A stretch of DNA of 64,000 nt from a virus: positions 1-64,000 of IMG/VR virus record IMGVR_UViG_2928611649_000001. One strand, written 5' to 3'. Positions 3,733-39,455 of this stretch are shown here, piece by piece; within the stretch, counting starts at the first letter, position 1, and each line of letters begins with the position of its first letter. The notes beneath the pieces were generated by a model, which had not been told where the DNA came from, searched no databases, and saw only the letters and a program-made list of their open reading frames with translations. The position numbers and the translations under genes were made by a program.

Positions 3733-3733
3733 C

Positions 3734-4784: not shown

Positions 4785-5155
4785 GCCGCCACCTCGATCA
4801 GTTCCATCCGGATGCTGACCTCGTTATCGAAGTCTATCCGGTCGGCGCTCACCAGCTTGATGCCGTCCGATCCGTCCAGCAGCGGCCAACCTTCAACACC
4901 TTGCACGGCGAACTCGTGCACCGCGCCAAGGCCGCTGGAGATTTCTTCCGCCAGCGCCCGGCGGCAAAGCATGTTGAGCACAGCGACCACAACATCGTCG
5001 TCTGCTTCCGCCAGCCGGTCGTCGGCGCCGCTCCAAAACTCGTTAATCAGCGTGCACAGGGCGATCATCTCGTCGCTCTCAGGCGCGCGCACGTCGACGA
5101 CGACATCGCTACAGGTATCGTCGAAGGTAAGGGTGTATCGGGCCCAGGTAATCAT
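4781..5155 (-). CDS. Acidic hypothetical protein
   Basis: 124 aa, in-operon coupling. Confidence 0.4.
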   Translation of the reverse strand: MITWARYTLTFDDTCSDVVVDVRAPESDEMIALCTLINEFWSGADDRLAEADDDVVVAVLNMLCRRALAEEISSGLGAVHEFAVQGVEGWPLLDGSDGIKLVSADRIDFDNEVSIRMELIEVAA

Positions 5156-6330
5156 GCTGCCACCCCGGCCACGTTCGCCACCACGTAGACGCCCTGCGTG
5201 CTGCCGACCACGTCGGCGGCTTCCATGGCCTGCAGCAGGCTGGAGGCCCGGTTGTAGGTAATCCGCAGCACGCGCTGCACCAGCGATATCGACGCGCGGT
5301 CCTGCTCTCGCACCAGCGCCACGGCGGCCGGGTACAGTGGGTCGGTGGCACTGCCATCGCCATCCGGGATACCACCCAGCCGCATCACTGCGCGCTGCGG
5401 CTGCACCGGCTCGTCGCCGGCCGCCGGCCGCGTCACCGGAGGCTCGCCCTCAGCCACGCCGCCCAGCGCCTCGACCAGGTCCGCCAGCAGCTTGGCCAGC
5501 TCGCCGCTGACCAGCGCGAAGTCGCCATCGAAGCGCTCAGCGTCGTCCTTGGCGTAGTTTTTCTCCGTCAGCACATCCAACAGCTTCACCGACTTGACGG
5601 CCAGGCTCTGGTCCAGCACGAAGCTGATCTTGCTATCCCATGTCATGGCCAGGCGGATGCACTGCTTCCCGGCGGCGATGTGGCGGCGCAACTCGTCCGC
5701 CTCGAGCGTGTGGCGCTTCCACTGCACCTGGGCCTTGCTCTCGCCGGTCGCCTGCAGGGTGGCGTCCATGTCGACCGTGAAGCCGGCTGGCGCATCGTCC
5801 GCCTGCAGCCACTCGGTCATCACGCCCACCGGTGAGCGCTGCACGCGCAAGCTCTCGACCGGGAACTTGTCGACGGCCTTGAGCAGCAACCTGATGACCT
5901 GGTCCGCCTTCGCCGGGCTGGCCGCGCCCACCACCAGCCATCCGTTGACCGGGTCGATCCAGACCCAAGTGCTGTCGCGCTTGGGGAATGCGCGCGGCAG
6001 CAGTTCGTCGGCGACGCGCTCGCGCAACTCCTTCATCGCCTTCTTGCCGGGCGCGAAGCCTTGCGCTTCTTCCATCTCGGCGGCGCGCGCCTTCGTCACC
6101 TGGTTGATGACGGCCGCCGGAAGCACCTTGGACTCGGTCGTGAGCTTCAGCAGGAACTGGCCGTTGATGACGTGGACCAGCTCGCCGGCCGGGCGCGGCG
6201 GCTCCCAGCCCTCGCGCAGCAGTTCGTTGCTGCCGGCCGGCGCGAAGGCCTGCTGCGCCAGCATGCGGTTGAGGGACTCGGCCGAAGTCAGGAAGCCGGG
6301 CAGGCGGTACATCTGAAGATTCTTAAACAT
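5152..6330 (-). CDS. rdgC: RdgC-like recombination-associated protein fused to a C-terminal FtsK-gamma winged-helix domain
   Basis: The N-terminus MFKNLQMYRL... is RdgC-like over ~300 aa. The C-terminal ~60 aa (DPLYPAAVALVREQDRASISLVQRVLRITYNRASSLLQAMEAADVVG) matches the FtsK gamma KOPS-binding domain. Confidence 0.6.
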   Translation of the reverse strand: MFKNLQMYRLPGFLTSAESLNRMLAQQAFAPAGSNELLREGWEPPRPAGELVHVINGQFLLKLTTESKVLPAAVINQVTKARAAEMEEAQGFAPGKKAMKELRERVADELLPRAFPKRDSTWVWIDPVNGWLVVGAASPAKADQVIRLLLKAVDKFPVESLRVQRSPVGVMTEWLQADDAPAGFTVDMDATLQATGESKAQVQWKRHTLEADELRRHIAAGKQCIRLAMTWDSKISFVLDQSLAVKSVKLLDVLTEKNYAKDDAERFDGDFALVSGELAKLLADLVEALGGVAEGEPPVTRPAAGDEPVQPQRAVMRLGGIPDGDGSATDPLYPAAVALVREQDRASISLVQRVLRITYNRASSLLQAMEAADVVGSTQGVYVVANVAGVAA

Positions 6331-7513
6331 GGTCAGCCTTTTGTTGGGTTGGGGAAGGGCGGCGATAGGTTTTGGTTAGGCCGCCGTTGACGCTGTGGCC
6401 GCGCCGGAGTACTGCGCGCGCCAGCGCCGCCCGGTCGCTGCGGCTGCTGAGCGACTGTCCGAGCAGGCCGAAGTAGCTGTTGGCGGATGCGAACACCTCG
6501 TCGGCGTCGATGCGAAGCACGCGGTTGACGGCCTGGCGGACGGTGCGGCGCCGGGTGCGCGTGTTCCATGGCTTGATGACGTGGCCGACGAAGTCGATCC
6601 CGCGCGCGACCGGCTGCAAGATGGTCTTGGTCGGGTTCAGGTTCGCGTGCAGCACGCCGGGCAGGAAGGTGTTGATGTCCGTCAGCGCGGCGTTCAGCCA
6701 CTGCGGCGACTCGTGCAGCAGCACGAAGTCATCCACGTAGCGGATGTAGTGCTGGGCGCGCACGCGGTGCTTCACGTGCTGGTCCAGCGCATCGAGGTAG
6801 ACGTTCGCGAAGAACTGTGATGACAAATTCCCGATGGGAAGTCCGCGGTGGGCCGGGTGGTTGGCCAGCCGCTTGTGCGCCGGAACCAGCGCCAGCAACT
6901 CCGGCGCGCCGCGCAGTTCGAAGTTCTCACGAGGGTCATGGAACAGAATGGTTTCGGCCAAGGCCAGCCACCAGGGCTCCGTGATCCGCGCCGCCAGCTG
7001 GCCGTGCAGCACTGCCTTGTCGATGGCGACGAAGAAGTTGGCGAGGTCGCATTTCAGATACCAGACTGGCTTCGACCAGTTCTGGCTGATGCTGCGCACT
7101 TTCGCCTCCAGGCGGCCGGCGGCGTACAGCGTGCCACGGCCCGGGATGCATGCGCAGGTATCTGGAATGAATGAGGCGTAGAAGCGCGGCGCCACGTGGT
7201 TGTACAGCACATGGTGCACGATACGGTCGGGGAAGTCAGCAGCCCAGACCTCGCGCGGCTTGGGGCGGGTGACGATAAAGCAGACCGAGGTGCCGGGCTT
7301 GTACGAGCCGTCGATCAGTTCGTCGTACAGCTGGATCAGGTTGCGCTCAAGGTCCTGCTCGAACACGAGAGCGCTGGGGGTATTGCGCTTGTGGCGCCGG
7401 CAGTCGAAGTACGCGACTACCAGCTCCTCAAAAGAGAAGTCTGCATCGGGTTGATCTGCGGACGGCGCGCGCGGCGCCGGCATACGACTTGTGGTTGTTG
7501 TTCTGGTTGCCAT
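6323..7513 (-). CDS. Diversity-generating retroelement reverse transcriptase
   Basis: 396 aa. It has the YVDDFV catalytic box and LPIGNLSSQFFANVYL (the DGR-specific SQ in place of QG in motif 4). It lies directly downstream of avd and the TR. The annotated start overlaps the TR 3' end. Confidence 0.85.
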   Translation of the reverse strand: MATRTTTTSRMPAPRAPSADQPDADFSFEELVVAYFDCRRHKRNTPSALVFEQDLERNLIQLYDELIDGSYKPGTSVCFIVTRPKPREVWAADFPDRIVHHVLYNHVAPRFYASFIPDTCACIPGRGTLYAAGRLEAKVRSISQNWSKPVWYLKCDLANFFVAIDKAVLHGQLAARITEPWWLALAETILFHDPRENFELRGAPELLALVPAHKRLANHPAHRGLPIGNLSSQFFANVYLDALDQHVKHRVRAQHYIRYVDDFVLLHESPQWLNAALTDINTFLPGVLHANLNPTKTILQPVARGIDFVGHVIKPWNTRTRRRTVRQAVNRVLRIDADEVFASANSYFGLLGQSLSSRSDRAALARAVLRRGHSVNGGLTKTYRRPSPTQQKADHV

Positions 7514-17891: not shown

Positions 17892-18116
17892 ATGCACCAA
17901 CTACATCAGGAAGATCGTCCTGGCGATGTGATGATCACGAGAACGTGTATTCCTTCCAAGGAATCCGGGACGCATCGATTGACGCAAGGAAATTTACCAG
18001 ATCCGTCCGGCCCTGGTATTGAAACCGGCCACGCCCATCTTGCGACGCCAGAACAACTGAAAGCCCTGGAAAAAGTGGTTGCGCGTCTGCCCGAGTCCTA
18101 TCTGAGTCCGAGCTAG
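17892..18116 (+). CDS. Hypothetical protein (MHQLHQEDRPGDVMITRTCIPSKESGTHRL...). Conflicts with the overlapping antisense ORF.
   Basis: Perfect GGAGG RBS 7 nt upstream. Low GC3. Overlaps 17935..18195 on the opposite strand. Confidence 0.3.
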   Translation: MHQLHQEDRPGDVMITRTCIPSKESGTHRLTQGNLPDPSGPGIETGHAHLATPEQLKALEKVVARLPESYLSPS

Positions 18117-18195
18117 TATTCATCGCAGAGGGTTTGACGATGACAATCGCAAAGGTCACCCCTTGCTCTTTGATAACCGCACCTTGAAATTTCAT
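17935..18195 (-). CDS. Hypothetical protein (MKFQGAVIKEQGVTFAIVIVKPSAM...). Conflicts with the overlapping antisense ORF.
   Basis: The minus-strand terminator lies just downstream. Low GC3. Confidence 0.3.
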   Translation of the reverse strand: MKFQGAVIKEQGVTFAIVIVKPSAMNTSSDSDRTRADAQPLFPGLSVVLASQDGRGRFQYQGRTDLVNFLASIDASRIPWKEYTFS

Positions 18196-18807
18196 GTTTT
18201 TCTTTCGTAGTTTTGGAATGCGCCCGCCGCCGGGAAGCAATCGGGCGCGTTTCATTGTAGCGAAATTGACAAGCTAAAATATCACCAATAGTCATTGGCT
18301 CCGCCGTAGCCGCACCGACTGCAGACGTAAAAAAAGCCAGCGCTGTGCGAGCCTGAGAAGGGGTTGTAAACCGTGGGGAAGAAGAGTAAATTCCGTCAGT
18401 GATGGCGGGCCGGCGCTAACCGACCCGCTTCCCACTAGGAAAGAATTCGATCAACGAGCACGTGCAAAATTGCTGCAAGCGCCCAGAGATTGATTTCCAC
18501 CTTTACTGCTTTGATCGTCAGTTTAAACATGGCAGAAGCCCTGTTTGCGCTGGCGGTACCGCCAACTGGTTGAGGGTTGGCTTATTTTTTAAAGTGCGGT
18601 TGCTTGCACTTCGCCTTGGCGCGCTGCAGCGTGCTTCGGCACCATGCTAGCGAAGTGATCCGCCCGCATGGCTCAGCTCAGTGGGTTCGATTATCCGGAA
18701 TCCACCGGGCTCTACCACCACGTCACCTTCCGCACCTTGCTGGATGCGGACATGGCTTGCGACCATGCTCTTTCGGCCCGCGCATCGGATGGCGCGCGGG
18801 CTATTCT

Positions 18808-19029
18808 TTACCCCAACTCAGCGTCGTCGCCCGCCAGACCGCCGCGCGTGCCGCCCTTGGCCAGCAGCTCGCCATCGACAAGGCCGCCCTTCGTGCCACT
18901 GGTGGCTAGCAGTTCATCGTCGACCAAGCCGCCAGTCCTTTTCGTGCCTCCGTTATCCGCCAGTTTTTTACCGTCAGGCTTGGCGACCGCGGGCGATTTC
19001 TTTGCTGGGACGTGGGATTTTTTGATCAT
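18808..19029 (-). CDS. Small protein with three KGGLVDxELLA tandem repeats
   Basis: GGAG RBS. 73 aa. Confidence 0.4.
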   Translation of the reverse strand: MIKKSHVPAKKSPAVAKPDGKKLADNGGTKRTGGLVDDELLATSGTKGGLVDGELLAKGGTRGGLAGDDAELG

Positions 19030-19147
19030 AGGCCACTCCTGCTAGTTGGATTCAAGGGGGAGTTTGTGCATTGCTCAGCTGCTGAACCCGCCAGCCAAGC
19101 GCTTGTGTAGCTGGCCGTGGCGCACCGGATGGTGCGCGGGCTATTTC

Positions 19148-19705
19148 TTATTTGGGACAATTTTCACGGATAAAGTCTACGGATTCTCTGAACCCCTTCA
19201 GGTCGATGTCCTCGCCCAGCATGCCGCCAATAATTGTTCCAATTTGAACTCGAAGTCTTTTCCCGTCATACAGCTGGTCAAAGTAAGGCTCCAGGATTAA
19301 CGAGCCCAAATCGCTTTCACTTTCGGTAGCCCTCTGCTGCCCTTGAGCAGGTTCATCATTGATCCGAACAGTGTAGTATTTCACTCCACCTCGGCCTCTC
19401 ATCGAAATGAAGAAATATCGCAACCCTCCCTGAATGTTCCAATCGCCCTTATACAACGCGACACACGACTTCTTGTCCGTCATTGCGTTGATGCTTTGGT
19501 CTACTGTCCAGAATCCGGAACGAAAGGCGGTCTTGGCTGTTGGAGTTGCCGCTTTGTTACTGGTAGAAGGCTTTTCTGTTGCAGCGCCGGTGTCATAACA
19601 AGCCAAGCGAGCCTTGTCAGCTTTAATGGATGCACAGTCTGCGCCAAAAGCGAGCACTGGCAGTGCGACGGTCGCCGTCAGAGTTAAGCGGAGAATGGGA
19701 TTCAT
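19148..19705 (-). CDS. Secreted protein (Sec signal peptide MNPILRLTLTATVALPVLAFGADC)
   Basis: 185 aa with an N-terminal signal peptide. Located in the low-GC island. Confidence 0.5.
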   Translation of the reverse strand: MNPILRLTLTATVALPVLAFGADCASIKADKARLACYDTGAATEKPSTSNKAATPTAKTAFRSGFWTVDQSINAMTDKKSCVALYKGDWNIQGGLRYFFISMRGRGGVKYYTVRINDEPAQGQQRATESESDLGSLILEPYFDQLYDGKRLRVQIGTIIGGMLGEDIDLKGFRESVDFIRENCPK

Positions 19706-19785
19706 CGAGTTCCTTGAGGCGGCAGATGCGTGCCGGGTCGCCCTGCAATTATAGGAAAATTGACAACTGGAAATCTATCGAATTG

Positions 19786-20478
19786 TCACGATCGATTTAC
19801 CATGTCCAGCACGGACTCATCGCGGCCTGCGGTGATCTCGGCGCACCTGGTGCGCAGCTTGTGTAGGACGGCCGGACCGATGCCTTTGAACGCGAGCAAC
19901 TGCTCGTCGCTGGCTTGGTCGATTCGCGCGGGCGTGTCGAGAGCCACATCCCACATCGCCAAAGCCGCATGATGGGGCAGGGTGGGCACGGTCGCCAAGA
20001 AGGTAGGGAAATAATGTTCGCATATTTCATCGACATAGTGTCCACTCAGTCCGCTGTATTTTGCCCATTCCGGCCGAGTGACTTCCGCACGCAATAAGCG
20101 GAGTCGCTCCCTTGCTGGAAGTCTCAACTCCACTACTTTGCGTAGAGCGATGAGAAATTGGGGATAGATCAGATCATAGCCATTTCTAATTGCCATCTCG
20201 AACGTCTGCCACCCAATGCCAGGATCATCCATATCTATGCCGATTTCACGCAGCGTCTTGAGCTTAGTCGACCAGTGGCCTTGATGTGAATTATCTGCAA
20301 ATTGCGGCGGGCAATAATTCAGGTCGTAGTGGCGGTACCCATGCCATTGCAGTACCGCTAGCGGGGTATCGAAGTGCAATGCGGCACGGAACTCAACGCC
20401 ATTGCATATTTCTGAATTGAGCCGTATTCCCTCAGCGCCGCCAGGCGAAATCTTGCTCCAGCATCTCCAAACCTTCAC
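19786..20478 (-). CDS. Hypothetical protein with a C-terminal helix-hairpin-helix (LLAFKGIGPAVLHKL)
   Basis: 230 aa. Confidence 0.4.
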   Translation of the reverse strand: MKVWRCWSKISPGGAEGIRLNSEICNGVEFRAALHFDTPLAVLQWHGYRHYDLNYCPPQFADNSHQGHWSTKLKTLREIGIDMDDPGIGWQTFEMAIRNGYDLIYPQFLIALRKVVELRLPARERLRLLRAEVTRPEWAKYSGLSGHYVDEICEHYFPTFLATVPTLPHHAALAMWDVALDTPARIDQASDEQLLAFKGIGPAVLHKLRTRCAEITAGRDESVLDMVNRS

Positions 20479-20496
20479 TCAACCCTCCGCGCAGCG

Positions 20497-20739
20497 TTAC
20501 TTGCTGGCCAGGTCGTGCATCTCCTTGACCAATGCTTTTGTCTCCGCACTGTCGCGCGCTAAAACGCGTAGCAAGTCGTAGATCGGGCCTGCTTGGAGCC
20601 GGTCGATAATCTCCGCGTTGAGCGTGCGGCCGTTGTACTCGGCGATCTCCATCAACTTGGCATGCAATTCTCTCGGGATTCGCAGCGATGTCTTAATGTA
20701 GTCGTCTTGCGTCGGCTTCTTGATGGGCGATTTGTTCAT
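20497..20739 (-). CDS. Arc/MetJ-type ribbon-helix-helix DNA-binding protein
   Basis: KTSLRIPRELHAKLMEIAEYNGRTLNAEIIDRL is a typical RHH. Confidence 0.5.
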   Translation of the reverse strand: MNKSPIKKPTQDDYIKTSLRIPRELHAKLMEIAEYNGRTLNAEIIDRLQAGPIYDLLRVLARDSAETKALVKEMHDLASK

Positions 20740-21049
20740 CGCCCAATTGTTTCTGACCCGCCAAGTTTTAGGCTAAAAACTCCTTCATAATGAAGGGTGA
20801 TTGTGAGAATCTGTTACTTTTCATTTCACAAGTAAAGGTTAAAAACCCCTCTACTTTTGATATGCAATCAAGGCAAACCTGTAATATAGTTAACACACTG
20901 TAAACATTTGATAGCAGAGTATTATGGAAAACTTACCCCGGATAGTTGCTGCATACGAGAAGATGGATAAGCAGGCACGCGACAAGTATGTATTGCGTAT
21001 GGAGCAGTCCGCCATCCGATACCCGATGCAGGTCCAGCAGCGTGCAAAT

Positions 21050-21436
21050 CTACGACTTGTTACTAATGAGAACCGGTGACTGAATTAGGCGCTCTGTTGC
21101 CTCGGCCTCATCTAAGATATCCCTCTGCCCCCGTTCACTAGTCGTTCGGAAGAGAGTTACCAAGTGCATTTCTTCTTCGTTCAACCAAGCGTAGAAAGGC
21201 GCGCGCGATGCGGGCGACTCGCGTGGCGGCTCAACTGGGCGCACATACTCCACGCCATCCGGCGTATCGAGATAACCGGCGCCCATCTTATATTTTTCCT
21301 CTAAGCGACGAGCGACCTTCTCCCCGAAGGAGCCATCCCCGCGCAATTGCGAAAAAAGACTCTTCTCTTGTTTTGGTATGCCGTTGTCGGCAACCCACTT
21401 GGCAAGGTTCGCTCTGCGAGTGTCAGTGATGTTCAT
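21050..21436 (-). CDS. CI-like phage repressor (HTH, no S24 peptidase domain)
   Basis: ANLAKWV..KSLFSQLRG..FGEKVARRLEEKYKMGAGYLD is a lambda/P22-type repressor HTH. Divergent from the cro-like gene. Confidence 0.55.
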   Translation of the reverse strand: MNITDTRRANLAKWVADNGIPKQEKSLFSQLRGDGSFGEKVARRLEEKYKMGAGYLDTPDGVEYVRPVEPPRESPASRAPFYAWLNEEEMHLVTLFRTTSERGQRDILDEAEATERLIQSPVLISNKS

Positions 21437-21507
21437 GCGCGCAGTTTAGTGTTTATTAAAGTAGTAATCACTTGACAGGTGGTTTAGCATTCACTAAACT
21501 CGCCTGC
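21437..21507. promoter_or_regulatory. Immunity-region divergent promoter/operator region with GTTTAG half-sites
   Basis: gtttagtg at ~21446. gtttagCATTCActaaac is an 18-bp palindrome at ~21489-21506. agtttagtg and cactaaact form an inverted pair. Confidence 0.45.
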
Positions 21508-21783
21508 ATGGACCTGAAAAAATACATCTCCGCCGAGCGCGGACGCGCCAAATCGCTTGCTGCCCACCTGGGCATCTCGCCTTCATTCCTTTCGCAAATC
21601 GCGGCAGGAACAGCGCCAGCTTCGCCATCCAGGTGCTTGGAGATCGAGAAGGGCACCGGCGGCCAAGTCACACGCAAGGACCTGCGCGAAGACTGGCGCG
21701 AAATCTGGCCCGAGCTCAAGCAATCCAACGCCAATCCCCAGCGCGCCACCACCCCGCGCAAGCCTGCGAAGGAAGTCGCATGA
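21508..21783 (+). CDS. Cro/YdaS-like HTH regulator
   Basis: LAAHLGISPSFLSQIAAG...CLEIEKGTGGQVTRKDLRED matches the YdaS/Cro family. Confidence 0.55.
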   Translation: MDLKKYISAERGRAKSLAAHLGISPSFLSQIAAGTAPASPSRCLEIEKGTGGQVTRKDLREDWREIWPELKQSNANPQRATTPRKPAKEVA

Positions 21784-21992
21784 AAACCGCTACCCAAGAT
21801 CACTTTTTGTGCGTCGTCATAGTCGCCGCTATCGCGGAAGCACGCCGCGCAGGCGATGACGTGAAAGTCGCCAGCGAGGCTGCCGCCAAGGCGTATGTGG
21901 CTGGACTAGTAGCGGCGGATGCGCCCGGCGAAAACAGCGGCGAGCGGGTTATCAGCGCTACGGGCCAGGTGGAATATCGCCCTCCGTCGTGA
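21780..21992 (+). CDS. Hypothetical protein
   Basis: 70 aa. ATGA overlaps the cro-like stop. Confidence 0.35.
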   Translation: MKTATQDHFLCVVIVAAIAEARRAGDDVKVASEAAAKAYVAGLVAADAPGENSGERVISATGQVEYRPPS

Positions 21993-22265
21993 GTAGTTTT
22001 TGCAGTTCCGCAATGGCTGTTCGAATCGGTATCTCCTGCAGCTTGGTGGAGTCCATTGGACCCTCAAGTGTCATTGGCCCCGTTATGTCGATTCTCACGT
22101 TGAGCCAGCCGAAGTCGTATGTGCCCGAAGTTTTGACTTTCCCGTTGATGAAAGTCGCAGTCATTTCTTTTTTGCAGTCCATGGGAGATCCCTTTGCAAG
22201 TTGTTGTGTGAGAACTGCAACTGTAACGCATTGGAATCTCCCGCCCATATTTTGGAAAGCACCAC

Positions 22266-24660: not shown

Positions 24661-25425
24661 ATGGCAAACGAAAACAACACCGGCGCCGCGCCCGGCGCAC
24701 TGCCGCCGCTGCCGAACCTGGCAAGGATGGCGCCACATGAACTGAATTCCGCGCTACTTGAGTTCGGCAGCGCCGCGTGGCACATGGGTCTCGACGTCGG
24801 GCTGGAGCATGCGCCAGCCGTCACCGACACCGGCTTGCTTGAGCTGCGCGACCACCTGGCCGCTGCAGCGCAAGACAACCAGGCGATCACGCTATCGCCT
24901 GTAGCTGCCAGCGCGCTGCATCACGCGATGACTACGCCGTCGGCAGCATCCAGCCCAGCCGGCGAGGCGATGCAAGAGGCGCGCGCGTCGCTGGATGAGG
25001 CCCTGGCCAGCGATGAGCTTCGCCAGTTGAAGGCTGAGGCGCAAGCGCTGGCCGCCGACGGCGCCAACTGGAGCATGCACGTCGGCTGCATGTTCTTTCT
25101 TGCCCTGATCGAGCGCATCGAATCGTTGGACACCAAGCCGGCCGGCTACATCGCCAGCCAGGACATGGTCAAGCTCGGCAACTGCCGCGCTGAGCTGTGG
25201 GCCGCGCCGCCAGCCGCCGATGCTGTGCCGGTATTCCTCGGCGCTCCAGCGGCGCCAGAAGGCTGGCAACTAGTGCCAAAGGTTCCGACGCCAGAAATGA
25301 TCATGGCTCTGGCCGTGCTGCCGGACATGGTCGACGGACGAATCATCCGGTACAGCATCGACAAGCTGCCAGATGCGTACGCCGCCATGCTCGCGGTTGC
25401 GCCAGCCGCCGGAACTCCGCCCTGA
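24661..25425 (+). CDS. Hypothetical protein
   Basis: 254 aa. Its RBS overlaps the conserved VR-downstream flank. Confidence 0.4.
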   Translation: MANENNTGAAPGALPPLPNLARMAPHELNSALLEFGSAAWHMGLDVGLEHAPAVTDTGLLELRDHLAAAAQDNQAITLSPVAASALHHAMTTPSAASSPAGEAMQEARASLDEALASDELRQLKAEAQALAADGANWSMHVGCMFFLALIERIESLDTKPAGYIASQDMVKLGNCRAELWAAPPAADAVPVFLGAPAAPEGWQLVPKVPTPEMIMALAVLPDMVDGRIIRYSIDKLPDAYAAMLAVAPAAGTPP

Positions 25426-25480
25426 CCGAATTTACCGGGCCGCCGCGCCCCGATCTGCGCGGCAATATATCGGAGAAATC

Positions 25481-26365
25481 ATGAATTTACCCAATCTGTC
25501 CGGCAAGCAAATCCGCAACATCGTAGTCGGCGCCGTCGTCGGCATCCTGTTGCTGTCGTTCTGGCCACTGAAGTCGGTCCCGACTGGCTCGCGTGGCGTA
25601 ATTACGCAGTTCGGCGCAATTAAAGGCGTCGAGCAGGAGGGGCTGGCCTTCGTGCCGCCTTGGCAGCGCCTGTCGATCTTCAGTATCCGCGCCGAAGAGG
25701 CGAGCATCGAGAATGCCGACGGCAGCACCGCCGACACCCAGCCAGTCAAGGTCAGCATGACGGTGCGCTACAGCATCGCCACCGACCGCGTCGCCGAGGT
25801 CTACGAGAAATACAGCCACGATGGCAACCTGGCCAGCTACGTGCAGACGGCGGCGGCCGAGGTATTCAAGGCAGTGACCGCACGCTACACGGCGCCGGAC
25901 CTGATCAGCAAGCGGTCCCAGGTCTCGGGCGACATCAGCGCCGCCCTGCGCGAGAAGTTGCGCCTGTACGGCGCCAGCGTGATCAATATCGACATGCGAA
26001 ATTTCTCGTTCGGCGGTAGCTACATGGCGGCCATCAACGAGAAGGTCACGCAAGAGCAGCTGCGCTTGGGCGCCGAGAATAAGCTGAAGACCGTCGAGGC
26101 CGAGCAAAAGCAGAAGGTGGCGATCGCCGAGGCTGAAGCCAAGGCGCTGTCAGCAAAGGCAGACGGCGAGGCCTACGCCAACCTGACGGTGGCCAAGGCC
26201 CAGGCCGAAGCCTTGCGAGTTCAAAACGCCGCGCTGGCGCAGAACAAAGACGTGCTGGAACTGCGCCGCATCGAGGTGGAGCAGACGAAGGCCAATCGCT
26301 GGGACGGCGTGTTGCCGACGACGATGTACGGCTCCGCCCCGATCCCGTTCCTGAATGCCAAGTAG
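25481..26365 (+). CDS. SPFH/band-7 (prohibitin/HflC-like) membrane protein
   Basis: N-terminal TM helix. SPFH core with a C-terminal coiled coil (EAEQKQKVAIAEAEAKA..). GGAGA RBS. Confidence 0.65.
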   Translation: MNLPNLSGKQIRNIVVGAVVGILLLSFWPLKSVPTGSRGVITQFGAIKGVEQEGLAFVPPWQRLSIFSIRAEEASIENADGSTADTQPVKVSMTVRYSIATDRVAEVYEKYSHDGNLASYVQTAAAEVFKAVTARYTAPDLISKRSQVSGDISAALREKLRLYGASVINIDMRNFSFGGSYMAAINEKVTQEQLRLGAENKLKTVEAEQKQKVAIAEAEAKALSAKADGEAYANLTVAKAQAEALRVQNAALAQNKDVLELRRIEVEQTKANRWDGVLPTTMYGSAPIPFLNAK

Positions 26366-26880: not shown

Positions 26881-27224
26881 CGCGCATCGTAAAAATATTC
26901 CCTCCGGCCGGTAGCCGCTCGCGCGCGTTGCTCATCGCACTTCAGCAAGGCCCTGGCACCTTCTACCAGGTGTGCGAGCGCGCCAACTTCGACATCGAGG
27001 ACTCCCGCCTTGAACTGGCCCTGCGCCACATCTTCGACCACATGATCGGCGGGAACGTGAGCTTGCGCGGCCTGACCTATTCGCTGACCGAAGATGCACG
27101 GATCTCGTTGGGCGAAGCGCCACCCGCGCCGTACGTTGGTCAGGTGGCCGGCCCAGCCTATCGAGGCACCGCCTATACCGCGCCCGTCAAGATTGCGCGC
27201 CGCGCTGCTGGAGCACACGCATGA
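26877..27224 (+). CDS. Hypothetical protein
   Basis: 115 aa, coupled to the methyltransferase gene. Confidence 0.4.
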   Translation: MTRIVKIFPPAGSRSRALLIALQQGPGTFYQVCERANFDIEDSRLELALRHIFDHMIGGNVSLRGLTYSLTEDARISLGEAPPAPYVGQVAGPAYRGTAYTAPVKIARRAAGAHA

Positions 27225-29617
27225 AGCGCGACGACTTCAATTTCGATCTGCTGCTGGGCGACCTTGCGGCGGGCGCGTCGACGCCGGTTCCAACGTCTCG
27301 GCCAGCAGGACCTCGTTCGCCGCGGCGCGTGAAGCGCGACTTCCTGACGCCGCAACTGGACCTGGGTCATGAGTTAATCATAGACAACTTTGCAGGCGGT
27401 GGCGGGACCAGCACCGGCCTGGAAGAAGCATTCGGCCGCCCGGTGGACATTGCGATCAATCACGACCCCGAAGCCCTGGCGCTGCACGCCATGAACCACC
27501 CGCTCACGAAGCACCTATGCGAGAGCGTTTGGGACGTCGACCCGATCAAGGTGACGAACAACCAGCCGGTCGGCTTGGTCTGGTTGTCGCCGGACTGCAA
27601 GCACTTCAGCAAGGCCAAGGGCGGCACACCAGTGGCAAAGAACATTCGCGGCCTGGCCTGGGTGACGCTGCGTTGGGCGGCGAAGTGCAAGCCGAGGGTG
27701 ATCATGCTGGAGAACGTCGAGGAGTTCAAAACTTGGGGGCCGCTGCTGGTGGACGCCGAGGGCAACTTCCGTCCAGACCCCTCGAAGAAGGGCAGGACGT
27801 TCGAAAGCTTCCTGCGCCAGCTGCGCGGCCACGGCTATACAGTCGACCACAAAGAGATGCGCGCCAGCGACTACGACACCCCGACGATCCGCAAGCGATT
27901 CTTCCTGGTTGCGCGGCGCGATGGCCTGCCGATCCGTTGGCCCGTGCCGACGAATGGCGCACCGACGTCCGCCGGCGTCCTGGCCGGTAACCTCGCGCCC
28001 TGGCGCACGGCCGCCGAGTGCATCGACTGGACCATCCCGTGCCCTAGTATCTTCGAACGCAAGCGGCCGCTGGCCGACGCCACACTGCGCCGCATCGCCA
28101 AGGGCATCCAGCGCTACGTGGTGGACGCGGAGACGCCGTTCATCATCGGGCAGGGCGGTCCGATCTATTCCGGCAAGCCGGTATCGGCCGATCAGCCGTT
28201 CGGCACGCTGACAACCGAGAATCACCGCGCCCTGGTCGTGCCCAGCATCGTACCGGTCACGCACCAGGGCGGCGACCGCAGCGAATCGGTTCATGAGCCG
28301 TTCCGCACAATCACCAGCGCCCAGCGGGGCGAGAAAGCGCTGGCCGTGGCCACGCTGGTGGATGCCGCGCACGGCGAGGTTTCGCCGAGCGGCGTCAAGC
28401 GCTGGGGGCCCGGCTGCAAGGATATTTCTACGCCACTCGGGACGGTGACGGCATCTGGCGGCAACGCAGCGCTGGTGACGGCATTCTTGAACGAACACGC
28501 CAATTCCAGCAATCAGCGCACGATGCCCGCCGACGAGCCGTTGCGCACCATCTGCGCCCAGGTCAAGGGTGGTCACTTCAGCGCCGTCTCCGCGACGCTA
28601 GTGGGCGTGGGCGGCCGTGCTGGGGAAAGCCGACCACGTGGCGCTAACGAGCCGGCGGCGACGATCACTGCGAAGGGCGATACCGCGATCGCCACTGCCT
28701 TCTTGGCGAAGCACTACACCGGTGTCGTTGGCTCTGATCTGGAAGACCCTCTCGGTACTGTGACCAGCTGCGACCACCACAGCCTGATAACTACACACAT
28801 CCAGCGCGACATGGGGCGAAGCGTCGGGCACCCTGCTGATGTACCGTTGGCAACCGTGACAGCTGGGGGCGGCGGAAAGGCGGCGTTGGTATCCGCTCAC
28901 ATTACCAAGTTCCGTACCGGCGCCACCGGCAGCGACATGAACTTGCCAGTGCCGACGATCACGGCGGGGCCCAAGGAGAACCCGGCCGGCGCACCGCACG
29001 CGCTGGGCATCGTCACCGCGCACATCGAGGCGATGTATTCGCAGAAGGGCGACGAATCACGCGGCCAGGACGCGCGCGAGCCGATCAAGACCGTCACGGC
29101 CAGCGCCCAGCACGCGGTGATGACCAGTAGCCTTGTGAAGCTGCGTGGCACCAGCAGCACGGCCAGTATGGATGAGCCGCTGCACACGGTCAGCGCCGGC
29201 GGCCAGCACCACGCCGAGGTGCGTGCCTTCTTGCTTGCGTACTACGGTACCGATCAGGACCAGTCGCCGAATTCGCCGCTGGCCACCGTGACGAGCCGCG
29301 ACCGCTTCGGCCTGGTTACCATCCAGGGCGTCGACTACCAGATCGTCGATATCGGTCTGCGCATGCTGGAGCCGGCCGAACTGTACCGCGCCCAAGGCTT
29401 CCCTGCCGCCTACGTGATCCGCGAAATCCCGGACCCGAAGCTGCTGTTCAAGGATGGGCATCAGGCCGATGGTAACCCATTGGATCTGCCGCGCGTGCCG
29501 CTGACGAAATCAGCCCAGGTGCGGATGTGCGGCAACAGCGTTTGTCCGCCGATGGCGCGGGCGCTGATCCAGGCGAACTTCATGCACGAGCGCGAGATGG
29601 GGACGGTCGCAGCATGA
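27221..29617 (+). CDS. DNA (cytosine-5)-methyltransferase with a greatly expanded target-recognition region (11 tandem TRD-like repeats)
   Basis: Motif I DNFAGGGGTSTG. PC motif PDCKHFSKAKG. ENVEEF is present. The C-terminal RMLEPAELYRAQGFPAAYVI matches the motif IX/X region. Between them are ~500 aa of repeats of the form (D/E)xPLxTVTAxGGxxALV. Confidence 0.8.
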   Translation: MKRDDFNFDLLLGDLAAGASTPVPTSRPAGPRSPRRVKRDFLTPQLDLGHELIIDNFAGGGGTSTGLEEAFGRPVDIAINHDPEALALHAMNHPLTKHLCESVWDVDPIKVTNNQPVGLVWLSPDCKHFSKAKGGTPVAKNIRGLAWVTLRWAAKCKPRVIMLENVEEFKTWGPLLVDAEGNFRPDPSKKGRTFESFLRQLRGHGYTVDHKEMRASDYDTPTIRKRFFLVARRDGLPIRWPVPTNGAPTSAGVLAGNLAPWRTAAECIDWTIPCPSIFERKRPLADATLRRIAKGIQRYVVDAETPFIIGQGGPIYSGKPVSADQPFGTLTTENHRALVVPSIVPVTHQGGDRSESVHEPFRTITSAQRGEKALAVATLVDAAHGEVSPSGVKRWGPGCKDISTPLGTVTASGGNAALVTAFLNEHANSSNQRTMPADEPLRTICAQVKGGHFSAVSATLVGVGGRAGESRPRGANEPAATITAKGDTAIATAFLAKHYTGVVGSDLEDPLGTVTSCDHHSLITTHIQRDMGRSVGHPADVPLATVTAGGGGKAALVSAHITKFRTGATGSDMNLPVPTITAGPKENPAGAPHALGIVTAHIEAMYSQKGDESRGQDAREPIKTVTASAQHAVMTSSLVKLRGTSSTASMDEPLHTVSAGGQHHAEVRAFLLAYYGTDQDQSPNSPLATVTSRDRFGLVTIQGVDYQIVDIGLRMLEPAELYRAQGFPAAYVIREIPDPKLLFKDGHQADGNPLDLPRVPLTKSAQVRMCGNSVCPPMARALIQANFMHEREMGTVAA

Positions 29618-29628
29618 CGCTCGCTTCG

Positions 29629-30210
29629 TCAATTACTCTGCGGCGGAAGGTTTGTGACTTCCATCTTAATTGCTTGGCGGCCGGAGAGCACCGCTTCAAT
29701 ACCGGATCTGATTGCATTTGCCTGATTCTCCAGGTTGTTGTGGGCTTCGGGGTTGTACCTACGCTCTCGCAATTCGAGTGCTTCAAAGTCGTAGCCCTGA
29801 GCGACTGCTATCGCAATAAGCAGTTCGTTGAATTTGTCGTCCCGACGCCGGAAGAGTCGATTGTGCTCATCCGGGGATGCATCTGTACCGAGATTTTCAG
29901 CGAGGGTCGCGAAGTATTCGTGCCATGCGCGCGTGACGTTCTTTTCGTCTTTGGTTTGATGACGCTCACCAGGCACAAGTCGGCCATAGAAGGCGATATC
30001 AATCATGTTGAGGGCCTGCACGTGCTCAGGCGAAAGGCGCGTTGCTCGTGTAGCCATGAGCGACCGGAAAATTCCTTCCTTCATCGAATTTTTTGCCTGG
30101 CTTCGTTCTATCCACTTTTGCGCCTGAACGGCTGCGACAGGGCCAATTACCGTTGCTAGGACTACGAGCCATTCGCCGAGTCGAACGGCTGGTTCAACTG
30201 CATCACTCAT
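29629..30210 (-). CDS. Membrane-anchored protein of unknown function (reverse-strand moron, low GC)
   Basis: Start at MSDAVEPAVRLGEWLVVLATVIGPVAAV with a GGAGGG RBS. One N-terminal TM helix. Opposite strand to its neighbours, with a local GC drop. Confidence 0.45.
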   Translation of the reverse strand: MSDAVEPAVRLGEWLVVLATVIGPVAAVQAQKWIERSQAKNSMKEGIFRSLMATRATRLSPEHVQALNMIDIAFYGRLVPGERHQTKDEKNVTRAWHEYFATLAENLGTDASPDEHNRLFRRRDDKFNELLIAIAVAQGYDFEALELRERRYNPEAHNNLENQANAIRSGIEAVLSGRQAIKMEVTNLPPQSN

Positions 30211-30243: not shown

Positions 30244-30690
30244 ATGCACTACACCCTGAACGAGGTCGACCGCCACCACCAGGTCAACATCAATGAATCC
30301 GCGCCACCGGTGTTGATCCCGAAGCGCTGCGTCTGCGGCAAGGCGGCTACTGCCAAGCAACTGGACCAGCACAGCAAGTGCGTCGCCTGCCAGCTGGCCG
30401 ACCGCGTCGCCACGCTGCAGCCGGAAGACTTGGCGATCCTGCGCCATATGGTGGGCGCGACGGATCACCACCCGCGTTCGCGCTGGGGCTTCCGCAACGA
30501 GTACTTGTGCAATCACCGCGACAAGCCGTCGATGGGGCGACTGATGTTGGCTGGCTTCGTCATCGCCGGCGATGCGATGCTTGTGTTGTCGCCATCGGAC
30601 CTGCGCTACTTCCACGCCACGGCGGCCGGATGTAAGTTGGCGGGCCTGCCGACGAAGCGCGCTTCCGTGGCGCTGGGAGCGCGGCCATGA
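30244..30690 (+). CDS. Hypothetical Cys-rich protein
   Basis: 148 aa. Confidence 0.35.
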   Translation: MHYTLNEVDRHHQVNINESAPPVLIPKRCVCGKAATAKQLDQHSKCVACQLADRVATLQPEDLAILRHMVGATDHHPRSRWGFRNEYLCNHRDKPSMGRLMLAGFVIAGDAMLVLSPSDLRYFHATAAGCKLAGLPTKRASVALGARP

Positions 30691-31091
30691 CGACCCTCTA
30701 CCTGGCCGGGCCGATGAGCGGAATCGTCGACGCTGACGGCGTTCCAAATTTGAACTTCCCACTGTTCAACGCCGAGGCCGCCCGCCTGCGCGCGCTGGGC
30801 TACACGGTCGTGAACCCGGCCGAGATCAACGGCGGCGCGGCCGAACTGGTGGCCTGCGCAGCCATGACGCCGGCCGAGCTCAAGGCCCACTGGCGCAAGT
30901 GCATGCGCCGCGACATCCCGGCCATGATGGAGTGCGACGCCATCGCGCTGCTGCCGAACTGGTTCAAGTCGAAGGGCGCCAAGCTGGAGGTGCGCATCGG
31001 CTCGGACCTCGATATGCCGATCAACATGGCGGCGGACCTGGTCGACCGGGTGTGGGATTTCTCGGATTTGGATTACGAGGAGGTGGCGTGA
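30687..31091 (+). CDS. DUF4406 (nucleoside 2-deoxyribosyltransferase-like) protein
   Basis: MTTLYLAGPMSGI...FPLFNAEAARLRALGYTVVNPAE. Confidence 0.55.
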   Translation: MTTLYLAGPMSGIVDADGVPNLNFPLFNAEAARLRALGYTVVNPAEINGGAAELVACAAMTPAELKAHWRKCMRRDIPAMMECDAIALLPNWFKSKGAKLEVRIGSDLDMPINMAADLVDRVWDFSDLDYEEVA

Positions 31092-32404: not shown

Positions 32405-35044
32405 ATGAGTGCATTTAGCCCTGAAGAACAAAAATTGCTGATCCAGGCCGAGTACGGCCAGTTCTTGCGCGAGAAAATCAAGATGGCCCCGCTGAAGGGG
32501 TTCGACGTTCCGCTCGAGCAGATCAATCCTACTCTGAAGCCGCATACCCGTGACCTGGTGCGCTGGGGCCTGGCGGGCGGGCAGCGCGGCATCTTCGCCA
32601 GCTTCGGCCTACACAAGACCGCCACCAACATCGAAATCATGCGCCTGATCGGCGTTCACCGTCCGGGCCTGCGTCTGATCGTGCTGCCGCTGGGCGTACG
32701 CCAGGAGTTCGTGCGCGAGGCCGCGAAGCGCTTCACCGGCGAATACGCGGTCAAGCTGCAATTCATCCGGACGACCGCTGAAATGGTCGACCCGGGCGTG
32801 ATCTACATGACGAACTACGAGTCCGTCCGCGAAGGCAAGATCGATGTCGCGCTGTGCCGCGCGGTGGCGCTGGACGAGGCGGCCGTGCTGCGCAGCTACG
32901 GCAGCAAGACGTTCCAAGAGTTCCTGCCGATGTTCGAAAGCGTCGAGTTCAAGTTCGTGTTCACGGCCACGCCAAGCCCGAACCGCCTGAAGGAACTGAT
33001 CCACTACGCCGGGTTCCTGGGCGTGATGGACACCGGCCAGGCGCTGACCCGCTTCTTCCAGCGCGACAGCGAAAAGGCAGGGAACTTGACCCTCTACCCG
33101 CACAAGGAGCAGGAATTTTGGCTGTGGGTCGCCAGCTGGGCGGCCTACCTGCAAAAGCCGAGCGACCTGGGCCACTCCGACGAGGGTTATGCGCTGCCGC
33201 CGCTGGACCTGCGGGTGCACGAGCTGGCCAGCAACTACGACGCCGCTGGCGCCGAGAAGAACGGCCAGGGCCTGCTGATCCCGAATGTCGCCATGGGCCT
33301 GTCGGCCGCCGCCGGCGAGAAGCGCGAAAGCATGGCTGACCGCGTGGCCAAGGCCGTCGAGTTGGTGCTTGCGCGCGCCCCCGGCGAGCAGGCCATTGTC
33401 TGGTGCGACTTGAACGACGAGCAGCGCGCGTTGGAGAAGGCGCTGGCCGCCGCCGGCGTCACGGTTTCATCGCTGGATGGCAGCCAAGACCCGGACCACC
33501 GCGAGCAGCTGATGGACGACTGGCGCGAGCGGCGCACCGACGTGTTCCTGTCGAAGCCGGTGATGTACGGCGCCGGCCCGAACCTGCAGCAGTGCCAACT
33601 GATGATTTTCACGGGCATCGGCTTCAAGTTCGCGGACTTCATCCAGGCGATCCACCGCATCTTTCGCTTCGGCCAGGACGGCACCTGCCGTGTGCACATC
33701 CTGCATACCGAGGTTGAGCGCGCTGTGCTGGCCAGCCTGATGGAGAAGTGGCGCCTACACGACGACGCCCAGGCCATGATGGGCAATATCATCCGCACGT
33801 ACGGCCTGGACAAGCTGTCCATGCAGGACACGCTGGCGCGCACCATCGGCGTGCAGCGCCAGGTTGCCGTCGGCGAGCACTTCACCGTCGCGAACAACGA
33901 CTGCGTGCTGGAAGCGCTGGAACAGGCGGACAACTCGATGGGGATGATTCTGACTTCGATTCCATTCGGAAACATGTACGAATATTCACCGAGCTACAAC
34001 GATTTCGGCCACACACAGGACAATGCGCAGTTCTGGCGCCAGATGGATTTCCTGACCCCGCAGTTGCTACGCATCCTGCAGCCGGGCCGCATCTACGCTT
34101 GCCACGTGAAGGATCGCATCCTGTTCGGCAACGTCACCGGTGCCGGCATCCCGACGGTGAGCCCATTCCACGCTGAGGCGATCTTCCACGGGCTGAAGCA
34201 CCGCTTCGACTACATGGGCATGATCACGGTCGTGACCGACGTGGTGCGCGAGAACAATCAGACCTACCGCCTGGGCTATTCCGAGGTCTGCAAGGACGGC
34301 ACGAAGATGGGCGTCGGCATGCCCGAGTACATCCTGCTGTTCCACAAGCCGCAGACCGACCGCTCGCGCGGCTACGCCGATACGCCAGTCACCAAGGCAA
34401 AGCCGCTGTGCCAGGGAGATGACGGCACGCCGGTGGACTTCGATCGCACGCTGCCGCCAATTCCCGGCACCGGCTACACCGTCGCGCGCTGGCAGGTCGA
34501 CGCGCATGCGTTCTGGCGATCGGGCGGCAACCGCCTGCTGGGCGCGGCGGAGCTGGCCTCCTATGGGCCGGCAAAACTGGCGAAGATGTTCACCGAGCTG
34601 TCGCTGACCAATGTCTACGACTACGAACTGCATGTCGGCGTCGGCGAGCACATGCTGGCCAACAAGGCGCTGCCGGCCACCTATATGAGCCTGGCGCCCG
34701 GCAGCAGCGATCCGATGGTATGGCATGACATTGTCCGCATGCGCACCTTGAACGGCGAGCAGTCGGCGCGCGCGGTCGAGAAGCATGTTTGCCCATTCCA
34801 GGTTGATGTCGTCGACCGCCTGATCCTGCGCTACACGAACCCGGGCGAGAAGGTCTATGACCCGTTCAGCGGCCTCGGCACGGTACCGGTGCGTGCGGTG
34901 AAGCTGCGCCGCTACGGCGGCGGGTCCGAGCTCAGCACCAGCTACTTCGCCGACCAGGTGCACTATTGCCAGGCGGCCGAGCGCGAAATCAGCATCCCGA
35001 CGTTGTTCGACCTGGTGGCGCTCGACCAGAAGAACGCATCGTGA
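32405..35044 (+). CDS. Fusion protein: SNF2/superfamily-2 helicase N-terminal half plus beta-class N6-adenine/N4-cytosine DNA methyltransferase C-terminal half
   Basis: The C-terminal half has MILTSIPFG (a DPPY-like motif IV) followed by DPFSGLGTVP (motif I FxGxG). The N-terminal ~450 aa is helicase-like. Confidence 0.65.
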   Translation: MSAFSPEEQKLLIQAEYGQFLREKIKMAPLKGFDVPLEQINPTLKPHTRDLVRWGLAGGQRGIFASFGLHKTATNIEIMRLIGVHRPGLRLIVLPLGVRQEFVREAAKRFTGEYAVKLQFIRTTAEMVDPGVIYMTNYESVREGKIDVALCRAVALDEAAVLRSYGSKTFQEFLPMFESVEFKFVFTATPSPNRLKELIHYAGFLGVMDTGQALTRFFQRDSEKAGNLTLYPHKEQEFWLWVASWAAYLQKPSDLGHSDEGYALPPLDLRVHELASNYDAAGAEKNGQGLLIPNVAMGLSAAAGEKRESMADRVAKAVELVLARAPGEQAIVWCDLNDEQRALEKALAAAGVTVSSLDGSQDPDHREQLMDDWRERRTDVFLSKPVMYGAGPNLQQCQLMIFTGIGFKFADFIQAIHRIFRFGQDGTCRVHILHTEVERAVLASLMEKWRLHDDAQAMMGNIIRTYGLDKLSMQDTLARTIGVQRQVAVGEHFTVANNDCVLEALEQADNSMGMILTSIPFGNMYEYSPSYNDFGHTQDNAQFWRQMDFLTPQLLRILQPGRIYACHVKDRILFGNVTGAGIPTVSPFHAEAIFHGLKHRFDYMGMITVVTDVVRENNQTYRLGYSEVCKDGTKMGVGMPEYILLFHKPQTDRSRGYADTPVTKAKPLCQGDDGTPVDFDRTLPPIPGTGYTVARWQVDAHAFWRSGGNRLLGAAELASYGPAKLAKMFTELSLTNVYDYELHVGVGEHMLANKALPATYMSLAPGSSDPMVWHDIVRMRTLNGEQSARAVEKHVCPFQVDVVDRLILRYTNPGEKVYDPFSGLGTVPVRAVKLRRYGGGSELSTSYFADQVHYCQAAEREISIPTLFDLVALDQKNAS

Positions 35045-39288: not shown

Positions 39289-39376
39289 GGAAGCATGGCT
39301 GAGAGGCCGAAAGCAACGGCTTGCTAAGCCGCACGCTCGCAAGGGCGCCCAGGTTCGAATCCTGGTGCTTCCGCCA
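39289..39376 (+). tRNA. tRNA-Ser (anticodon GCU), type II with a long variable arm
   Basis: GGAAGCA...TGCTTCC acceptor stem. CCAGG-TTCGAAT-CCTGG T arm. Anticodon loop TTGCTAA. 3' GCCA. Confidence 0.7.
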
Positions 39377-39381
39377 GTTTT

Positions 39382-39455
39382 GCGGGTGTAGCTCAATGGC
39401 AGAGCTGACGCTTTCCAAGCCTATGACCAGGGTTCGATTCCCTGTACCCGCTCCA
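39382..39455 (+). tRNA. tRNA-like, probable tRNA-Gly (UCC) with an imperfect anticodon stem (possibly degenerate)
   Basis: GCGGGTG...TACCCGC acceptor stem. CAGGG-TTCGATT-CCCTG T arm. Loop TTTCCAA. The anticodon stem GACGC/GCCTA pairs at only 3 of 5 positions. Confidence 0.45.

Follow-up and report, generated by a model that had tools for sequence, protein, structure and literature searches.

What is the role of a long tandem array of short repeats inside a phage DNA methyltransferase? The question is raised by an open reading frame (ORF) at 27221..29617 (+ strand, 798 residues) in a 64,000-nucleotide stretch of viral DNA (IMG/VR record IMGVR_UViG_2928611649_000001, positions 1 to 64,000; hereafter the window), which is a temperate, siphovirus-like prophage of Duganella. 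A first-pass annotation described the gene as a C5-cytosine methyltransferase (C5-MTase) with 11 repeats, each regarded as resembling a target-recognition domain (TRD). The gene itself is ordinary: its protein is already annotated, and its family is enormous. What appears to be undescribed in the searchable literature is the combinatorial way in which its arrays are built from cassettes, drawn from a vocabulary common to the family and turned over in register. Here, sequence comparisons show that the repeats are modules that arrays acquire, lose, exchange and reorder as intact cassettes, through in-register recombination in a conserved strand.

The array comprises 11 tandem units of 32-45 residues each. 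It spans residues 325-716 (~390 residues) and lies between methyltransferase motifs VIII and IX, the place in which every C5-MTase has its TRD. In a motif-free window comparison scored with BLOSUM62, the protein contains 206 similar 12-mer pairs, as compared to a mean of 8.9 and a maximum of 20 in 50 shuffles, and essentially all of these pairs fall within residues 321-700. In a leave-one-out test using hidden Markov models (HMMs), all 11 units pass, with scores of 9.8-30.1 bits against maxima of 3.7-11.5 bits in 200 shuffles per unit; unit 8 is the weakest, at 9.8 bits where its shuffles reach at most 5.1. The units share the consensus xPLxTVTAxGxxALVxAxL, and P-x-x-T-[LIV] is found in 11/11. 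An HMM rebuilt from 718 units of diverse family members likewise finds 11 units in the window protein. A search for repetition or low complexity at the DNA level of the array found none, and BLASTP of the array against itself returned the diagonal alone, which is uninformative.

The 11 tandem repeats that the first-pass annotation had noticed are thus real. Its figure of ~500 residues for their extent was too large, as residues 170-324 contain motifs VII/VIII and a conserved segment that is not part of the repeat. This segment (residues 241-324, RTAAECIDW...LADATLRRIAKGI...PFIIGQGGPIYS; 27941..28192, +) directly precedes the array and is nearly invariant among both close and diverse homologues. 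Its self-similarity is near background, with 18 covered positions at residues 241-320 versus 40-600 per 20-residue block inside the array.

The units within one protein resemble each other less than they resemble units elsewhere in the family. Each unit of the window protein has a local alignment score of 97-157 against one particular unit of proteins that are ~60% identical or less, and of 35-61 against its siblings. Across the family, unit pairs within a protein have a median normalised score of 0.17, versus 0.64 for the best match between proteins. Recent duplication of the units was therefore rejected as their origin, because sibling units are the least similar pairs and a DNA-level repeat is absent. 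As judged from these comparisons, the units are old, distinct types. Average-linkage clustering resolves about 128 such types, with only 6 duplicates within a protein; single linkage chained all units into one cluster. Written as a string of types, the array of the window protein reads g-W-K-G-M-C-L-N-l-A-B.

The boundaries of the natural module can be read from pairwise alignments to close relatives. The gaps in these alignments are 31-34, 66, 75-77, 101 and 111 residues long, which are whole multiples of a unit, and both ends of the gaps fall at unit offset +12 to +18, which is within the second, conserved strand (aALVxAhl). Examples are the natural deletions of residues 490-521, 525-558, and 557-597. 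The unit of gain and loss is therefore a cassette made up of: a strand; a type-specific tail loop; the (E)PLxT(V/I/L)T element; a Gly-rich loop; and a strand. Analysis by position identifies P2, T5, T7, G10, the strand at 14-16, L20, and G25 as common to all types. Positions 9-13 and 19-28 form two blocks whose conservation holds within a type and not between types. These correspond to two type-specific loops per module, which flank the T-[VIL] dipeptide on either side and in which identity within a type is far above that between types. Arg, Gln, Asn, and His are abundant in the type signatures, as in TLvQtGYGER.GQaPR, GvGGRAGQS.Pr, TEHANaS.qR, and KLrGTC.dGQ.

At the level of whole arrays, one end is constant and the remainder varies. 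Nearly all arrays of the family end in A-B, with type A penultimate in 97/111 occurrences and type B last in 105/105. Upstream of this pair the arrays are mosaics, for example KGCAB, EDCAB, MCAB, KGCIAB, and FEDMCLlAB, and 148 distinct architectures occur in 150 proteins. As many as 87 type pairs are seen in both orders; therefore, the arrays have been shuffled and do not reflect nested deletion alone. Certain types are near-obligate neighbours: K is followed by G in 21/23 cases, E is followed by D in 29/39, and H stands before every V. Turnover of the arrays is also recent. The 120 close relatives have 56 architectures, and relatives whose cores are 90-98% identical to that of the window protein differ by single units (M, C, L, or N present or absent), by an exchange between W and E at position 2, or by an inserted WD. 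The arrays gEKGCLNlAB, gEKGMCNlAB, and gEKGNlAB are found among these close homologues.

These arrays belong to a very large family. An exhaustive search of 50%-identity representatives identified 8081 clusters when the threshold was E<=1e-3 and 2611 when it was E<=1e-30, and lengths range from 379 to 1113 residues; a word-indexed protein search returned at least 8000 matches. In tblastn searches, the methylase matched 541 phage records, with a nearly full-length match in 124. The hosts of these phages include Burkholderia, Ralstonia, Pseudomonas, Aeromonas, Klebsiella, Escherichia, Citrobacter, Pectobacterium, Myxococcus, and Mesorhizobium; the many tblastn matches in Gordonia and Mycobacterium phages may be partial. 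Overall, the family occurs in phages of Proteobacteria, Myxococcota, Actinobacteria, and Firmicutes. Cultured phages carry the same unit types, with the strings stEDHVAB in BgManors32 (Burkholderia), SNXEDIA(+) in Eeyore (E. coli), and.EDCAB in Mx4 (Myxococcus). The E-D signature TLVQTGYGERxGQxPR...PLGTVVAGGxKHA is conserved in Myxococcus, Burkholderia, and E. coli phages.

The number of units in 149 diverse representatives ranges from 1 to 12 with a mode of 6-8, and 24/149 have at least 9. As a result, the 11 units of the window protein, which had been thought exceptional, represent the high end of a family trait and no outlier. Two observations concern homologues in Escherichia. The homologue of phage Eeyore (645 residues, at least 7 units) adjoins a PAPS-reductase-like gene, in the region 1668-4932 of that phage. 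A homologue is also present in 13/5426 complete E. coli genomes, beside a phage N6-adenine methyltransferase; it seems that C5 and N6 methylases accompany one another in those E. coli prophages.

The units of the window protein are all encoded on the + strand and differ in how constant they are. Unit 1 (type g, residues 325-358, QPFGTLTT...THQGGDRSESVH; 28193..28294) is followed by unit 2 (type W, residues 359-402; 28295..28426), in place of which close relatives have type E or F. Unit 3 (type K, residues 403-438; 28427..28534) has the tail EHANSSNQR and is the near-obligate partner of unit 4 (type G, residues 439-476, EPLRTICAQVKGGHF...GVGGRAGESRPR; 28535..28648). The next four units vary in presence among close relatives: unit 5 (type M, residues 477-508; 28649..28744), unit 6 (type C, residues 509-540; 28745..28840), unit 7 (type L, residues 541-574; 28841..28942), and unit 8 (type N, residues 575-619; 28943..29077), the last of which has a longer loop, PKENPAGAPHALG. 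Unit 9 is of type l (residues 620-651; 29078..29173). Unit 10 (type A, residues 652-684, H.AEVRAFL.YYG; 29174..29272) is the constant penultimate unit of the family. Unit 11 (type B, residues 685-716; 29273..29368) is the constant last unit and runs into motif IX, a position that matches that of the Thr-Leu (TL) element in ordinary C5-MTases.

The catalytic core to which this array is joined is a standard, intact C5-MTase fold. Its identification as a phage enzyme of this class is borne out by Pfam, PHROG, Foldseek, and the prophage context. PF00145 matches the whole protein with 84.4 bits (cutoff 22, E 1.3e-23), where profile positions 3-168 correspond to residues 53-239. Matches at E ~1e-96 come from two PHROG 'DNA methyltransferase' families, of which one aligns in six separate stretches, and NCBIfam TIGR00675 'dcm' scores 67.2 bits, below its curated cutoff of 100.65. 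At NCBI, the identical protein is a 762-residue 'DNA cytosine methyltransferase [Duganella violaceipulchra]' that begins at a GTG at 27329. This start agrees with the consensus N-terminus of methylase homologues, and the ATG at 27221 overlaps the stop codon of the upstream gene (ATGA). The choice between the two starts is immaterial here.

Conservation of the core was judged in two alignments, one of 76 close homologues and one of 137 diverse sequences. The N-terminal catalytic domain, which binds S-adenosylmethionine (AdoMet) and contains motifs I-VIII (residues 50-240; 27368..27940, +), is delineated by PF00145, AlphaFold2, and Foldseek. As anticipated in the first-pass annotation, motifs I, IV, and VI lie within the first ~170 residues. 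Motif I, for AdoMet binding (DNFAGGGG, residues 55-62; 27383..27406, +), is invariant in the close alignment and nearly so in the diverse one. Motif IV (SPDCKHFS, residues 123-130; 27587..27610, +) contains the catalytic Cys126 and aligns to PPCQGFS of the solved structure 3g7u. Here, the family is distinctive, with Asp-Cys for the usual Pro-Cys and Lys for the usual Gln after the Cys; the motif is invariant in the 76 close sequences, and its key residues are invariant in the 137 diverse ones. Motif VI (LENVEEF, residues 163-169; 27707..27727, +) and motif VIII (TIRKRFFLVARR, residues 222-233; 27884..27919, +), located from the alignments and the comparison with 3g7u, contain the ENV and RKR (RxR) elements. 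Cys126, each residue of ENV, and RxR are invariant in the 137 sequences.

Beyond the array, motif IX (RMLEPAELYRAQGFP, residues 714-728; 29360..29404, +) was located by BLASTP to SPbeta and by the alignments, where it aligns to SPbeta RKLSPLECWRLQAF. Motif X (MCGNSVCPPMA, with GNSV, residues 769-779; 29525..29557, +) was located with Pfam on the isolated C-terminus, which matches profile positions 297-320 with 21.4 bits. A string previously quoted as motif IX/X at the extreme C-terminus corresponds to motif IX alone; it lies 70 residues from the C-terminus, and motif X is separate and follows it. The best sequence match among solved structures is 3g7u (E 6.5e-8), a putative DNA methyltransferase of prophage CP-933R from E. 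coli O157:H7, which is also the best fold match and is likewise prophage-encoded. Unlike the window enzyme, 3g7u has 376 residues and an ordinary-sized recognition region without a tandem array, and only the catalytic domain aligns (residues 53-236).

What, then, does the array do? The reading favoured here, which stands at about an even chance of being correct, is that the protein is a multispecific anti-restriction methylase, analogous to the SPR/phi3T/SPbeta enzymes but of a separate, much larger family. If so, several of the variable modules would be alternative TRDs, each in turn presenting a different short DNA sequence to the one catalytic site, and the enzyme would methylate several unrelated motifs. 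The enzyme, which is expressed from the early/replication operon and has no partner restriction enzyme, would in this way pre-protect replicating phage DNA from various Type II restriction enzymes of its hosts, as M.SPRI, M.phi3TI, and M.SPbetaI do.

Precedents for such a mechanism exist in single-target and multispecific enzymes. A TRD reads DNA by two loops that flank the TL dipeptide (PMC2790894), and tandem TRDs give Bacillus phage methyltransferases several targets (PMC8936443). In M.HhaI, with its sequence verified from the PDB, Loop 1 (GQGER) is followed by nine residues, TL, Loop 2 (SAYGGG), a strand, and motif IX; the modules of the window protein have the same order of elements. M.HhaI and M.HaeIII share the catalytic fold of the window enzyme. 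They differ from it in having one recognition element rather than eleven and Pro-Cys rather than Asp-Cys in motif IV, and there is no statistically detectable sequence similarity between the recognition regions.

The closest functional parallels are the multispecific C5-MTases of Bacillus temperate phages: M.SPRI, M.phi3TI, M.rho11sI, M.SPbetaI, M.H2I, and M.phiBssHII. Like the window enzyme, these are encoded by phages or prophages, lack a partner endonuclease, and combine one catalytic core with tandem T-[LIV] modules between motifs VIII and IX, where the modules differ between related phages and the last abuts motif IX. That the units have behaved in evolution as independent, exchangeable cassettes is what this precedent would predict. 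The natural variants that differ by single in-register modules on 90-98% identical cores are consistent with modules that could be removed or exchanged singly while the enzyme stays functional. In contrast, the window family is separate in sequence, as BLASTP aligns it to SPbeta MtbP only in the core (25% over 114 residues) and at motif IX, and it has shorter and more regular modules, a far larger vocabulary (about 100 types), and a far wider host range. The Bacillus enzymes have about 2-5 specificities, compared with 3-12 modules in the window family and 11 in the window enzyme. Multispecificity has been demonstrated for the Bacillus enzymes; in the window family it is inferred from sequence. 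Cassette exchange through recombination in conserved flanks is also known from the specificity modules of Type I HsdS and phase-variable TRD shuffling. This likeness is evolutionary only, as HsdS proteins are separate specificity subunits with two TRDs that serve amino-methyltransferases.

Several observations that weigh against multispecificity come from comparison with characterised TRDs. Each unit had been proposed to resemble the TL loop of M.HhaI. This resemblance does not survive a shuffling control: alignment of M.HhaI 235-267 to the array gives a Smith-Waterman score of 30, which 218/1000 shuffles reach, and the same comparison made family-wide is no better than shuffles. An HMM in the module register scores M.HhaI at -1.9 bits, and the unit profile does not detect it either. 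Against SPbeta it gives 3.1 bits, compared to a shuffle 99th percentile of 0.2 and a maximum of 5.1, so that similarity to a known multispecific enzyme is only marginal, and the unit HMMs score SPbeta MtbP below zero (-2.2 and -0.3 bits). The unit profile has no match at E<=10 among PDB sequences, a result that is uninformative for a profile of 32 positions. The only pairwise support for TRD similarity is a BLASTP alignment of residues 685-727 (unit 11 and motif IX) to SPbeta MtbP 358-395 (E 0.012), which is driven largely by motif IX. When constructs were assembled in silico from the core, units 10-11, and the C-terminus, or from the core, unit 11, and the C-terminus, Pfam still aligned positions 3-168 only. 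Because these trimmed constructs leave the Pfam alignment unextended, the assignment of unit 11 as the canonical TL element is unconfirmed by profile.

Other points against it concern the protein itself. The modules, at ~32-35 residues, are at the small end of Bacillus TRD sizes, and the Asp-Cys variant of motif IV is unusual. The A-B pair is invariant, and the near-obligate pairs K-G, E-D, and H-V suggest that some modules are cooperative and not independent. A literature search found no paper on this family or its methylation specificity; PMC3483164, PMC11954522, and PMC8112702 proved to have no bearing on it. Structure prediction adds a further point. AlphaFold2 gave a mean predicted local distance difference test (pLDDT) score of 42.8, with the array below 50, when supplied with the 76 close homologues; with the 137 diverse homologues the core exceeded 90 and the array remained at 20-65. 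The predicted models thus provide no structural support for independently folding TRDs. The low array values are not evidence of disorder, because mosaicism scrambles the multiple-sequence alignment, which has 3360 columns. Foldseek against the PDB recovered only the catalytic core, with 3g7u, DNMT1, M.HaeIII (1dct), and M.HhaI all at E ~1e-11 and probability 1.00.

Two further comparisons were made with M.HhaI and SPbeta. The sequence GQGGPIYS (residues 310-317) was likened to GQGERIYS of M.HhaI and set aside as not significant, given that 218/1000 shuffles match the best M.HhaI alignment. SPbeta mtbP (28716-30047) encodes a Cys-rich insertion in its catalytic domain, CSNCSHEH...CPKC, with weak matches to zinc-ribbon families; this insertion is absent from the window protein.

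The evidence also bears on how many specificities a multispecific enzyme would have. In nearly every member the array closes with the same two units, and constant units cannot encode variable specificity; moreover, some types travel in pairs. For these reasons the earlier count of 11 TRDs is not upheld, and the number of independent specificities is probably well below 11. Inert pseudo-TRDs ('pseudo-domains') were reportedly described in Bacillus phage methyltransferases by Lange et al. in 1991. A bolder form of the proposal would have the family draw on a common library of roughly 100 interchangeable cassettes of 35 residues, each type specifying one short motif, with 3-12 cassettes on one core and in-register recombination reshuffling them, and would have the Duganella enzyme methylate ~8-10 motifs, more than any characterised methyltransferase. 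This is a tentative suggestion that is more probably wrong than right.

Alternative explanations differ mainly in whether the units act separately. The tandem hairpins may pack into one large beta-rich DNA-binding domain with a single target, which could be long, degenerate, or very short, and changes of unit would then tune the specificity or affinity of that domain. Cooperative packing is suggested by the constant terminal A-B units, by the 21/23 association of K with G, and by the occurrence of V always after H. It is also consistent with the short units of 32-35 residues, their lack of detectable homology to autonomous TRDs, and the absence of any member with just 1-2 clearly functional units, the shortest having 3-5. 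Set against this, the order of units is not conserved, as the 87 type pairs found in both orders attest, and single units come and go between proteins with 90-98% identical cores; a total of 148 architectures in 150 proteins is hard to square with a cooperative fold. AlphaFold2, which is usually confident on solenoids and propellers, gave neither, although this is weak evidence given the scrambling of the alignment by mosaicism. On balance, a single packed domain is unlikely, if worth serious attention.

A less probable explanation, and one that we regard as quite unlikely, is that specificity is set only by whichever modules lie closest to the catalytic core or to motif IX. The remaining units would be inert relics or flexible spacer, comparable to the pseudo-domains of the Bacillus phage enzymes, and the enzyme would be mono- or bi-specific. 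Freely varying unit number is expected of dispensable sequence, and the low predicted structure confidence of the array is compatible with it. Yet inert spacers should decay and not retain about 100 discrete, conserved types. Type-specific residues are strongly conserved across phyla, as in the E-D signature, loop identity is far higher within types than between them, and the array lacks DNA-level repetition and low complexity. It is very improbable that the enzyme performs another C5 chemistry, transferring a different group, or acts on a substrate such as single-stranded DNA or replication intermediates, with the array serving substrate handling rather than sequence choice. This would account for the family-invariant SPDCKHFS, with Asp before and Lys after the Cys, and would fit the presence of the C5-carboxymethyltransferase 8yf3 among PDB sequence and fold matches and of a DUF4406 / nucleoside 2-deoxyribosyltransferase-like gene nearby. 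However, the best matches are to ordinary C5-methyltransferases (E 6.5e-8 for 3g7u versus 5e-4 for 8yf3), the remaining catalytic motifs are all canonical, and the window showed no genes for hypermodification (TET/5mYOX, glycosyltransferases).

If the modules are independent TRDs, then multispecific self-methylation would be a widespread and combinatorially evolving anti-restriction strategy, found beyond a few Bacillus phages and spanning phages of Proteobacteria, Myxococcota, and Actinobacteria. By analogy, the concept of the multispecific methylase would extend to a separate, far larger family. Motifs containing 5-methylcytosine (5mC) are under-characterised because PacBio sequencing detects them poorly, and the natural library of cassettes offers a route to 5mC specificities through module types and methylomes. 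Under the bolder form of the proposal, a map from type to motif would constitute a readable, engineerable recognition code for cytosine methylation. Motif assignments could aid the prediction of phage host range and supply parts for designer methyltransferases. With this architecture, phages and prophages of E. coli can be used to test directly how C5-MTases recognise their targets. Tractable systems include E. coli phages Eeyore and Flotzy, phage BgManors32 of Burkholderia, phage Mx4 of Myxococcus, and the prophages that 13 complete E. coli genomes carry. Should the array prove to be one cooperative domain, its extreme mosaicism would itself need explaining.

The genomic context places the methylase among replication genes of the prophage. 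The window encodes an integrase (4-1110, -), TerL, a portal, a major capsid protein, and head and tail genes, together with RecT and a RecE-like exonuclease. The methylase lies in a rightward early operon with genes for Ant, an SPFH protein, a helix-turn-helix (HTH) protein, DUF4406, NinG/Rap, a helicase, and the replication initiator and loader. No restriction endonuclease family was detected among its neighbours, and because no such gene is adjacent, it is classed as an orphan phage methylase in the replication module.

Several genes of this operon merit description. An 879-residue protein (32405-35044, +) consists of an SNF2-type helicase (Helicase_C, residues 316-423) fused to an N6/N4 amino-methyltransferase domain (PF01555, residues 514-848, 37.7 bits versus a cutoff of 26.7), which gives the prophage a second DNA methylase, located 2.8 kb downstream of the C5 gene. 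Directly downstream of the C5 methylase, a DUF6680 protein gene (29632-30198, -; E 9.6e-46) lies on the opposite strand within the otherwise rightward operon, a placement that is moron-like. The DUF4406 / nucleoside 2-deoxyribosyltransferase-like protein (30687-31091, +; Pfam 71 bits, phrog_355) is encoded two genes downstream of the methylase, and the SPFH/Band-7 protein (25373-26365, +; Pfam 105 bits, PHROG 'lipoprotein') is encoded upstream of it.

Elsewhere, the leftward early operon contains a reverse transcriptase (RVT_1, 52.4 bits; phrog_1423, E 6.6e-116), which could be a retron, Abi, or DRT-type element. Its neighbour is an RdgC exonuclease-like protein with a fused FtsK-gamma DNA-binding domain; the two genes are at 6326-7513 (-) and 5155-6330 (-). 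Between the leftward and rightward early operons, an island at 18000-22000 has a lower G+C content (53-55% versus ~63% elsewhere). Its ORFs are mostly unannotatable and probably represent immunity-region or moron genes. Between the early and late modules are two tRNA genes on the + strand, Ser(GCT) at 39289-39376 and Gly(TCC) at 39382-39455.

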